Shown here piece after piece: positions 30,001 to 33,000 of a stretch of 64,000 bases of DNA. The number at the start of each line of letters is the position of its first letter. Position 1 is the stretch's first letter. Made by a program: the position numbers. The stretch comes from Escherichia coli (GTDB lineage: Bacteria; Pseudomonadota; Gammaproteobacteria; Enterobacterales; Enterobacteriaceae): assembly GCF_013315695.1 (NCBI RefSeq), contig NZ_CP054353.1; one strand, written 5' to 3'.

Positions 30001-33000
30001 TGTTTCCACAACAAATTTATTTAACCTCTGAATCTCAAAATCATTGGAATTTCTTCTGTCAACAACCTTGTAAGAAGACTGAGCGTAAACCTGAGTTTCT
30101 GCGGCCTGAGGGTTCTTTTTGTTATGTGCAACAGTAACACTATAAGAACCTCCTATTGCGGTAGCTGCGCCACTCGCTGCTGCACCAGAAAAATCCGGAA
30201 TTGAGAGATTATGGAAAGAGAATTTATCTCCGTTTTTTAAAGTGATTGTTACGTCTGTTGCTCCGGGCTGGAAAATACCTTTATTTTGTGCAAGATCAAG
30301 ATAGTCTCTCGCCCATACATTTGATATATCAATATTTGCTGCATTTACTGTACCGGCAACAGCCAGAGACAACATTGTTGCTACAAGTTTTCGGTTTGTT
30401 TTACCAGAAACTCTTTTCGCTAATTCAGAAACAGCAATGAGTCCGCCAGTGGCAGCACTATATTTAAGGGAGTATATTTTATTCATATATTCTCTCAACT
30501 CATTTATTGAATGAACAAAGTATTAAGAATTAAAATTATTAGTAACAGTTGGTTACTAACAGCTTGCTAAAAGTAACAGTTCTATATTGTAAATATGTGA
30601 CAATGTTCTCATTAATGATGAGAGATTATGTGAATCAATACTAATTGATCGTTAATTGATCGTTTTTTTTTTTTTTTTGCCCAATGTGGGGAGGGGTAAT
30701 GTTTAATATTTCGATATGATCGAATATCTGTTCGCATGGAACATCGTTCAGTGATTCACGACGAATTAGCGATCGACCACGATGCGATTTTGCAGTGTGC
30801 CGAAGAAGTTCTCCATCGCTGCGTTATTCAGACCGTTTCCTTTGTGCGGCATATTTTGTGCTACTCCATGGGGCTTTAACTTTGCCTATAGCCTGCCATT
30901 CGATATTGCCAACCCTGATCCGTATGTAGCTACGGGGCATCCTCCGGGCCGGGCACTGACAATGCATCGTGCACCATCGTATTAACAATCTCCATTACCG
31001 GACTTTATGACAGGCGCAGGAGAAAATCTCCCGGTTAAACTGAACGGAGAACCAGCGACAGGTACCTCTTTTTACCCTGTAGCAAGTACTCTATAACATA
31101 CTCCCCCATTTTTCGTTGGCCTTCATTGCAGCAAAGTTCCGGCTCAGGATATTGGGCGCAGATCATCCTCTCAGGAATTTCAGGATCTGCCAGACGGTGC
31201 TGAGACGACGCTTACTTGTAAGGTTAGTTTTCAGACGGACAATGAAATGAGGATATGCGATAAATTTCAGTCAAAGATCCATAAAACAGACATAATGTTA
31301 TTCAGTGGTGAACAGTCCATTCCGGAGACGGAATATCTTGTTAAGGCTGTATATTATACTGGCTGTAAACAACATGGCCACCAAGGACCATGTTGTTTAC
31401 AGCATACCCTTGTTGCAAAAGCATCCCCGTCAGAACAGCACTGAGTAGTTCAGACCAAAGGTTCGGCCCCGGCCTTTGTAGTCGTACAGTGAAGCAGGGC
31501 CGTAACCCGGGCTGTAGTACAGAGGTGCACGCTGTCCCCAGACAGTAGTATAGTCACGGTCGAAGAGGTTCTCAACGCTGAAGCTGAGTGTTCCCACCGG
31601 AAGCTGCCAACTACTGATAAAATCGACGGTAGTGTAACCATTAATATCGTTACCCTCTGCATCGCTTACGTCGAAAGAAGTGGTGCTCTGTACACGCAGA
31701 CTCCACGGTTCCGGCGCCCAGTTAATGTAAGCTGTCGCTTTCGATGGACTTGATTCCTTCACGTCATATTTTTGCCATTGACCGTTCACTTTCGACTCGG
31801 TTTTCAGCACATTGAAGTTCACACCGGTACTCCAGTCAGTATCCGGGATCAGGTAGTCCACCGCACCTTCCACGCCGTAAATACGGCGCCTGTCGTCCTT
31901 CACACTGATGGTCAGATCTTTATTCCTTTCCACGCTCTTATTGGAAAGCGAGTAATATGCCGCGATTTGAGTCCGCAGGTTGTCACCGATAAAGCGCCAG
32001 CCCAGTTCATAAGAATCGACTTTCACGCCTTCCAGCTTACTGTCGCTGACGTTCACGCTCTTTGTCAGGGGAAGATGGCCGTTCACTGCTGCACCATAGA
32101 TGCCGCGACCATAATATTTCCCCGGATCCGGCAATGCCACCCCCTGGGAAAAATTGAACCATGCCTGCTGACGTTCGGTGATGTGCATCAGCAGACCAGC
32201 ATTGAACAGAAAGTTATCGTAATCTACCGAACCACCAGGAATGGCGTCTGCAGATATCGCCTTCCCGGCAGCAATCTTCTGTTGCTGCGTGTAGTCGATG
32301 AAATCATCTACCCTGTTCTCAGTATACTGATAGCGTACGCCACCGCTAACGGTAAAAATATCATTAATGTCATAGCTGGATTGCAGGAAGGCCGCCAGAT
32401 TGGTGATGTCATATGACGGATAGCGCCCGGTGGTGTAAATCTTATGGTTGTTCAGCCCTCCGGAAGCACTTGCCTGAGCCAGATCGAAGAACATCTGGTT
32501 GGAGGTAAAGCGCTCATGCTCAGCATCCAGCCCCCAGGTGATTTGCCAGCCGTCCATCAGTTGGCTGTTCAGAGTCAGTTTCATGCCGTACTGGTCGGTA
32601 TCCTGCTGTGACGAGGAGAAAGCCGTCGCCTGTTTATTCGCATTTACCGTCGGGAACGGGTAGTACCGCAACGACTCATCGCGGTAGTAAACCTGACCGA
32701 CCAGTTCCTGTCCCAGGAAATCACTGTCAGAGTACTGCAGGCTGATCAAATGCCGCTCAGTGCCGGGAATGCGGTCAGAATTCAGCCCCTTACTGACGTA
32801 TGGTGTGCTGCTCCCGCTGATGGCGGAAAAGCCTTTCCCGAGATTAAGCCCGTAATTGTCGTCTCCCTGACTTTTATAGTACTGCGTTATCAGTTGAAGC
32901 TGCCGGGATTCATCGATGTTCAGCGTACCGGTTCCCATGATGTCCAGCCGATTGGAGTGCTGCAGGCCGGTCTGGGTGTTATCAAGCAGGGTGGCATCGC

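Follow-up and report, generated by a model that had tools for sequence, protein, structure and literature searches.

What brought sat and the aerobactin locus together in the pathogenicity islands of Escherichia coli, and did an insertion sequence (IS) of the IS66 family take part in it? The question is raised by a short sequence that lies alone between sat and iutA of the aerobactin locus in a 64,000-nucleotide stretch of the E. coli contig NZ_CP054353.1 (RefSeq assembly GCF_013315695.1; the whole stretch is hereafter called the window). An initial annotation recognized in it a solo IS66 terminus of 48 bp, and pointed to IS-mediated rearrangement as what had joined sat to aerobactin. We find that this sequence is probably an inert scar with an insertion-deletion history, made up of the outermost 51 bp at the tnpA-proximal end of an ISEc22-like element, and that it makes an unlikely agent for the linkage of the two loci.

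A solitary IS66 end downstream of iutA

Direct comparison of 31168..31215 with 46503..46550, which is the tnpA-proximal end of an intact ISEc22-like element in the same window, showed identity at 48 of 48 bases, bearing out the match first claimed, and the exact identity of the two copies amounts to 49 nt when the next T is counted. A blastn search of the whole intact element against the window extended the match three nucleotides inward, to 31165..31215 (50/51), the sole mismatch falling on IS position 49, where the same variant is seen in other copies; family copies with G at this position (Nord122 (L006) and Klebsiella plasmids) are identical to the remnant at 51 of 51 bases. Because the match runs to 31165 and the mismatch at position 49 is a family variant, the remnant is 51 bp long rather than 48 bp. 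A 23-mer probe taken from the terminus found only two sites in the window with up to three mismatches, with 0.00 expected from 100 shuffles. The outer terminus lies 215 nt past the stop codon of iutA, and the interior of the IS would extend leftward, toward sat, whose start codon is 679 nt away from the stub.

The end is indeed solitary. Adjacent transposase genes, a partner end and an 8-bp repeat, which an IS66 element in its own right requires, are all missing: blastn of the whole IS against the window detected no further IS66 sequence beside the stub, the terminus occurs twice in the window and both times in the same orientation, leaving no partner inverted repeat, and a second copy of the flanking 8-mer TTGTAAGG is missing from 28000..34000, which excludes an 8-bp target duplication there. 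What the stub has is a terminus identical to that of the family, including GTAAGCG at its outer edge, which identifies it as an IS66-family derivative, and, as in a solo IS end or IS scar, the homology stops abruptly at an internal position of the IS and the joint is unchanged in orthologous loci. Two apparent additions were discarded. A weak similarity to the left of the 48-mer (31149..31167 against 46484..46502, 11/19) is DNA of an IS3 orfB, of which 31165..31167 alone belongs to the IS66 end, and a second IS66-type terminus that seemed to abut at 31218 (GTAAGG) gave z ~0 when aligned in register with five ends of the family.

The intact element served as the comparator. Inverted repeats starting with GTAAGCG and a layout of tnpA, tnpB and a DDE transposase have been described for the IS66 family (PMC12888890), and the comparator has GTAAGCG at 44097 and CGCTTAC ending at 46550. 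Pfam domains were detected in all three genes (HTH_Tnp_1 in tnpA, 9e-12; TnpB_IS66, 1.6e-38; DDE_Tnp_IS66 in tnpC, E=1.5e-106, together with zf-IS66, LZ and C-terminal domains), tnpA also matches the NCBIfam IS66 TnpA models, and the transposase of a collinear genome is named 'IS66-like element ISEc22 family transposase' by the Prokaryotic Genome Annotation Pipeline (PGAP). With three genes, GTAAGCG inverted repeats and an 8-bp target duplication, the comparator is a complete IS66 element, whereas the stub, which begins with GTAAGCG like ISEc22, keeps 51 of the 2,454 bp and, without tnpA, tnpB, tnpC, the second end and the duplication, is a fragment and not an element. Miniature inverted-repeat transposable elements (MITEs) and other non-autonomous IS derivatives are likewise short, non-coding and derived from IS ends, but MITEs require two inverted ends and target duplications, of which the stub has neither.

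Table 1 Positions and strands of the features discussed in the text
Feature	Position	Strand	Details
Solo IS66 remnant (stub)	31165..31215	-	IS positions 1-51, tnpA-proximal end (left inverted repeat, IRL), ISEc22-like; outer terminus GTAAGCG... at 31215, toward iutA
Filler ATC (+ strand)	31162..31164	.	Between the IS66 remnant and the IS3-type relic; common to the O157/STEC joint, ...GCGCAGATCA
Decayed IS3-family OrfAB fragment (IS3 block)	30746..31161	-	ISKpn1-related group; frameshifted, truncated at both ends, upstream of sat
iutA-downstream flank	31216..31430	.	Abuts the outer terminus of the stub; contains an 18-bp perfect hairpin, 31362..31403
sat	26599..30486	-	PGAP annotation of a collinear genome; own 5' flank recognisable to ~30683 by pet homology (query 29-434)
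iutA	31431..33626	-	PGAP annotation of a collinear genome
Intact ISEc22-like IS66-family element (comparator)	44097..46550	-	2,454 bp; tnpA 46065..46469, tnpB 45721..46068, tnpC 44134..45672
Target-site duplication TGATAAAT	44089..44096 (left), 46551..46558 (right)	.	8 bp, on both sides of the comparator
IS66 relic 1, tnpC-proximal end	18790..19062	-	GTAAGCG at 18790 and frameshifted TnpC C-terminus; DDE_Tnp_IS66_C E=4.4e-14; PGAP pseudogene
IS66 relic 2, tnpC-proximal end	22052..22272	+	TnpC C-terminus and ...CGCTTAC ending at 22272; DDE_Tnp_IS66_C E=1.7e-11; PGAP pseudogene
Further IS66 relic ('X-type')	25597..25763	-	tnpA-proximal end and first tnpA codons; terminus ...ATGCTTAC at 25763; absent from the initial annotation

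The inner edge lies within an IS3-family gene

On its inner side the stub is separated by three unassigned bases from a decayed fragment of an IS3-family transposase gene. The NCBIfam profile transpos_IS3 matches this block with E=1.7e-25 over profile positions 202-332 of 369, the alignment beginning at residue 2 beside the joint, and the fragment scores 90 bits with NF033516 (curated cut-off 160) and 22.9 bits with Pfam rve (E=1e-4; cut-off 32.6). At the DNA level the block shares ~87% identity with intact IS3-family genes carried by plasmids of Salmonella and Citrobacter, and ~75% with ISKpn1-family genes, and its equivalents in other genomes are labelled by PGAP as IS3-family/DDE pseudogenes. 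Its assignment to IS3, for which this identity to intact genes and the pseudogene calls also count, is by sequence that of an apparent relic and not of a member element. The homology stops at 31161, because the intact IS3-type relatives read ...GGGCGCAG and continue with CCTTGCC. No IS terminus is thus present at the inner edge, where a deletion or an illegitimate joint carries IS66 position 51 into the middle of the IS3 orfB relic.

Several other readings of this edge were tried and abandoned. A match to Nord122 that reaches 18 nt further to the left does not represent a longer IS66 end, since the ISEc22-like element of Nord122 has lost positions 52-290 by an internal deletion; an IS66-tnpA-like reading frame in the window DNA left of the stub gave no family match; and an IS3 IRL tip at the joint found weak support, TGAT standing here where the relatives have TGGA. 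Farther toward sat, a 16-T homopolymer occupies 30663..30678, ~180 nt upstream of the sat start and near the end of the pet homology (~30683); its length could vary among strains, and several matches to the spacer differ by a few bases in total length.

One joint in about 740 genomes

Genome counts were made over 5,426 complete E. coli genomes. The whole spacer between sat and iutA was found in 722 of them, the IS3 block with stub and flank in ~740 (741 and 740 in separate searches), and the 5' region of sat joined to the IS3 block in 729, the carriers including CFT073, Nissle 1917, EC958/ST131, VR50 and clone D. When we searched with a chimeric query that combined 200 bp of IS interior with the flank, an intact element was seen at the relic site in none of the 5,426 genomes, and every best match started at IS position 51, CFT073, Nissle 1917, VR50 and clone D included. 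When eight independent loci were compared nucleotide by nucleotide, the stub proved to be bounded on either side by identical joints in all of them. The joint is an old one, and because all of the ~740 carriers have it in common, its origin is single: the block made of IS3 relic, IS66 stub and iutA flank arose once, and was then inherited and exchanged as a unit in pheV-type and related islands. Beyond this block lies sat in ~720 genomes and iha in 18, and in O104:H4 the block is cut by an IS1203-type element. Within the stub we encountered one substitution (plasmid pE2022-9) and one internal deletion of 8 bp (goose strain BR1220, contig L014), which is the pattern expected of neutral DNA.

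A scan of species representatives for an empty site returned two contigs only, both of metagenome-assembled genomes (MAGs) and both with the stub. These contigs (L014, JAIJJM010000012.1; L015, JAEYCB010000044.1), labelled as Collinsella sp. and Bacillota bacterium, carry the island DNA at 97-99.6% identity, and this is almost certainly E. coli DNA brought in by binning contamination.

The history of the comparator is a different one. In 695 complete genomes its target, a gene of the YagK/YfjJ family, is empty and has TGATAAAT once, and the occupied junction occurs in two records only, while the relic is fixed in ~740; for this reason we regard the comparator as a recent, lineage-specific insertion, which is independent of the relic. 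Recombination between the stub and the intact copy, which lie 15.3 kb apart, would delete aerobactin, and the predicted recombinant was present in 0 of the 5,426 complete genomes.

Like other IS remnants of pathogenicity islands (PAI-CFT073-pheV, SHI-2), the stub is part of such an island, here one of the pheV type, where it is located in the segment with iha, sat and aerobactin. In CFT073 the corresponding region, NC_004431.1 3460928..3461163, falls inside the PAI-CFT073-pheV span given in a review that describes numerous partial transposases and remnants of ISs in such islands, the outcome of their stepwise assembly (PMC7545054). In contrast to the known remnants, this particular stub has no PGAP annotation in any genome inspected, and no paper describing it or its joint was found in the literature searched.

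The joint exists without sat, and sat without aerobactin

The arrangements in which one of the partners is missing bear directly on the linkage. In 18 complete genomes and one MAG contig, iha is followed by a 2.8-kb O157-type spacer, the IS3 block, the stub and iutA-iucDCBA, with sat absent; their sequence is O157-type up to 30772 and that of uropathogenic E. coli (UPEC) from 30777 on, so that the switch between the sat-bearing and the iha-bearing form is placed at ~30773..30776, at the far end of the IS3 block and ~390 bp from the stub. In O104:H4, which is also without sat, an IS1203-type end abuts 31087, and what follows, at 99.3% identity, is the final 78 bp of the IS3 block and then stub, flank and iutA. 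In O111 an IS1203 abuts at 31214/5 and the stub is gone. The selC island of goose strain BR1220, conversely, carries sat together with IS3 block, stub and 80 bp of flank but lacks aerobactin. A change at 30818 in the iha-aerobactin recombinant that looked like a heteroduplex-repair patch turned out to be merely a polymorphism among UPEC-type loci.

The stub therefore joins the IS3 block to aerobactin, whichever gene stands beyond the block. Since the same joint of IS3 block, stub and iutA exists without sat, and since the switch lies ~390 bp away, the IS66 end is not singled out as the linking agent; that it brought sat and aerobactin together is, on balance, unlikely. The sat-iutA spacer is nonetheless filled with remnants of mobile elements. 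The sat-less forms may be ancestral or secondary, both being compatible with the data.

The outer edge

The flank beyond the outer terminus belongs with aerobactin, and 984 genomes have it starting at its very first base. A sat-less chicken strain (L003) has it from 31228 on, where the end of an IS1-family element abuts, and the aerobactin loci of ColV and Klebsiella plasmids share it from 31388 only, that is, from within the loop of the perfect hairpin at 31362..31403. This hairpin, ~30 nt downstream of iutA (RNA fold z=-4.6, without a U-tract), is probably the terminator of the operon or an element resembling a palindromic unit. The sequence ...TCGCTTACC of the chicken strain, once considered to be an IS66 end, belongs to the divergent IS1-family element. 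We also considered a decayed tnpC end at 31259..31320, where the DNA similarity to the tnpC-proximal end of the comparator has z=4.3 (3/300 shuffles) and includes an exact 11-mer, TGTTATTCAGT, over the T-E-stop codons, with no Pfam support; a fifth relic of great age or a chance match could account for it, and we set it aside as a weak lead.

A related joint and a recurrent breakpoint

In the iha-bearing islands of the tellurite/adherence type in O157:H7, O26, O111 and other Shiga toxin-producing E. coli (STEC), a copy of the IS3 block that is 87% identical has the same edges, the ATC filler included. It is followed by a 70-bp tnpA-proximal stub of a different IS66-family member (~62% identical) in the same orientation, and then by unrelated DNA (for example L001 4001..4483 of O157:H7, and L007; window counterpart 30746..31165). 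The STEC joint thus has in common with ours the IS3 fragment and a tnpA-proximal IS66 stub broken before AGTGG; it differs in the length and identity of the stub and in the neighbouring DNA, sat and aerobactin being absent there.

A third break of this kind, unrelated to the other two, is seen in Nord122 (L006 3440..3566), where the deletion removes the tnpA start and the helix-turn-helix from the ISEc22-like element. The UPEC stub, the O157 stub and the Nord122 deletion are all broken directly before AGTGG, between it and a preceding T, at 51 or 70 nt inside the element, and the partner sequences at these breaks are alike (GATCTGCGCCC twice, GAGCTGCTCCC once). Nord122 is an extant derivative whose deletion begins at the same place as the stub ends, between positions 51 and 52, showing that such internal deletions occur. 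The UPEC stub may come from a Nord122-like derivative that recombined with the IS3 relic in a CTGC microhomology, which leaves the O157 version unaccounted for. Nesting of family members is also seen in the Nord122 element, which is broken at position 596 by the end of a second element of the IS66 family.

Other IS66-family relics and neighbouring features

The transposase remnants that the initial annotation had placed at 18838..19062 and 22056..22238 are genuine C-termini of IS66-family tnpC with termini of the family type. In the blastn comparison the ISEc22-like copy matches relic 1 at only 83% over 52 nt and relic 2 at only 71% over 163 nt, so that both come from other members of the family and are not pieces of the element that left the solo end. 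Recognized by its terminus and by similarity to the tnpA N-terminus, the X-type relic lies just downstream of sat, where an IS3-family element at 23976..25596 truncates it, and agrees at 98-99% with the ends of intact, tnpA-annotated IS66-like elements in many E. coli genomes; at the O157 flank, a longer X-type end was absent. The window thus holds one intact element and four relics from at least three distinct family members, in keeping with the repeated IS66 insertion and decay that had been suggested. The outer end of the X-type relic, 25763, coincides with a module boundary: contig L014 runs parallel to the window between 36784 and 25766 and diverges beyond.

On a larger scale, 923-bp inverted repeats (96% complementary) belonging to an IS3-family element, at 15103..16025 and 41672..42594, bracket a segment of ~25.6 kb with iha, sat, iutA-iucDCBA and a major facilitator superfamily (MFS) gene. 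This arrangement is composite-transposon-like or inversion-prone, and iha is inverted relative to aerobactin when compared with the sat-less arrangement of L016. In iucA (37655..39379) an in-frame stop at 38198..38200 appears to split the gene into open reading frames at 38198..39445 and 37655..38161, and PGAP flags iucA of the collinear genome NZ_OZ547117.1 as a pseudogene with an internal stop; aerobactin synthesis may be defective in this lineage.

Discussion

The most likely course of events would begin with the transposition of an ISEc22-like element into AT-rich DNA ~215 bp downstream of iutA, giving the clean joint of terminus and flank at 31215/31216. Positions 52 onward, and anything beyond them, would then have been lost by one or two deletions of a non-transpositional kind, which would have fused position 51, via three bases, to the interior of an IS3-family transposase gene that had already decayed. 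Several observations weigh against this history. The initial transposition is inferred from the clean terminus alone, and neither the 5,426 complete E. coli genomes nor the scan of species representatives yielded an empty or a fully occupied site for the outer joint. Insertion followed by random deletion does not predict that one and the same IS3 edge, with its filler, should be joined to two different IS66 stubs. Moreover, three IS ends fall within 13 bp of the outer joint, namely IS66 at 31215, IS1203 at 31214/5 (O111) and an IS1-family element at 31227/8 (the chicken strain), and this region may be a module edge or a hot spot of insertion or recombination with a more complex past. The loci concerned are 31214..31228 of the window, L008 (3999), L009 (3871/3872) and L003 (~4000), and the IS1203 of O104:H4 stands at 31086/7.

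The common IS3 edge behind two kinds of stub can be explained in other ways. In a refined form of the initial proposal, the stub might be the scar of the event that joined two island modules, a crossover between an IS66 stub already present behind the IS3 block, as in the O157/STEC islands, and the left end of an ISEc22-like element beside iutA, by which the ISEc22-type terminus and the aerobactin locus were exchanged in, followed by a deletion of ~18 nt that left 51 bp, and sat (or iha) would have become linked to aerobactin in this way. The stub does sit exactly between DNA of different provenance, the IS3 edge and the ATC filler are common to UPEC and O157 while the type of IS66 stub and everything outward differ, and the two stub types share an identical run of 9 nt, TATTTGGTG, near the inner end. 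Such a history, however, needs a crossover within ~9 nt of identity and then a second deletion that ends no more than 1 nt from the old joint, and its intermediate, an ISEc22-type stub of 69-70 bp, was in no genome of the 5,426-genome query and in none of the eight loci compared. Furthermore, the joint exists without sat, with the switch at 30773..30776, and the crossover need not be the event that brought sat; we consider this origin possible but rather unlikely. IS1397 and ISKpn1 insert site-specifically into palindromic units, and if an ISKpn1/IS1397-like element, or a defective derivative of one, had inserted in a comparably specific manner inside two IS66 left ends, the joint would be one of transposition and the right edge of the block a genuine or surrogate IS3 terminus. 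This would account for the same IS3 edge behind two stubs that are both broken before AGTGG; the junction T-GATCTGCGCCC agrees at 9 of 12 positions with the IRL tip of the relatives, TGGACTGCACCC, and in the window a 3-bp ATC is found on both sides of the block. We nevertheless hold it to be improbable, as the sequence up to 31161 aligns with the interior of orfB, both in the full-length IS3 profile and in the intact relatives, leaving 3-4 nt at most for an inverted-repeat tip, which reads TGAT and not TGGA; at its left edge the block does not end in an IS3 terminus, and no IS66 sequence lies further out; and the O157 copy is without a flanking 3-bp repeat. A wider suggestion is that the step from T to AGTGG marks a hot spot of site-directed breakage or recombination at the inner boundary of the transposase-bound left end, or of targeted insertion by an element of the ISKpn1 group. 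We view it as distinctly doubtful.

Since the stub has neither a transposase gene nor a partner end, it cannot transpose. It might have been kept for a function, as a promoter or operator upstream of sat, as a transposase-binding site acting in trans or as half of a MITE-like element, given that it is conserved in ~740 genomes and that the tnpA promoter region, which points into the IS, would be directed at sat from 679 nt upstream of its start. Against this, no promoter-like site, partner repeat, Rfam family or significant fold (z=-0.45) was found in the stub, the substitution and the 8-bp deletion are tolerated in sat-positive loci, and the conservation equals that of the surrounding pseudogene DNA, making a retained function highly improbable. 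The sole activity plausible for it is homologous recombination with other ISEc22-like copies, to which it would offer 51 bp of matching sequence. That the 48-mer is not derived from an IS at all, but is part of a longer conserved non-IS sequence or a chance match, deserves virtually no credence: nothing was found in its favour, the exact match compares with 0.00 expected in shuffles, the same sequence ends IS66-like elements in thousands of places on E. coli and Klebsiella replicons, and homology to related genomes breaks at both edges of the stub.

The inert scar of an ISEc22-like end is thus the reading we prefer. As an IS scar the stub is ordinary and of a kind already known, set in a mosaic pathogenicity island. 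The recurrence of the breakpoint before AGTGG is the sole aspect that might repay more work; if it is non-random, such stubs would be predictable products of IS66-family elements and not accidents. For annotators the stub is a caution, having been missed in every genome inspected. It carries little weight for biology otherwise, but it provides a stable landmark for tracing how the segment with iha, sat and aerobactin was assembled and reshuffled, since variants can be recognized against its joint: iha-aerobactin without sat, the IS1203-truncated forms of O104:H4 and O111, and sat without aerobactin at selC.

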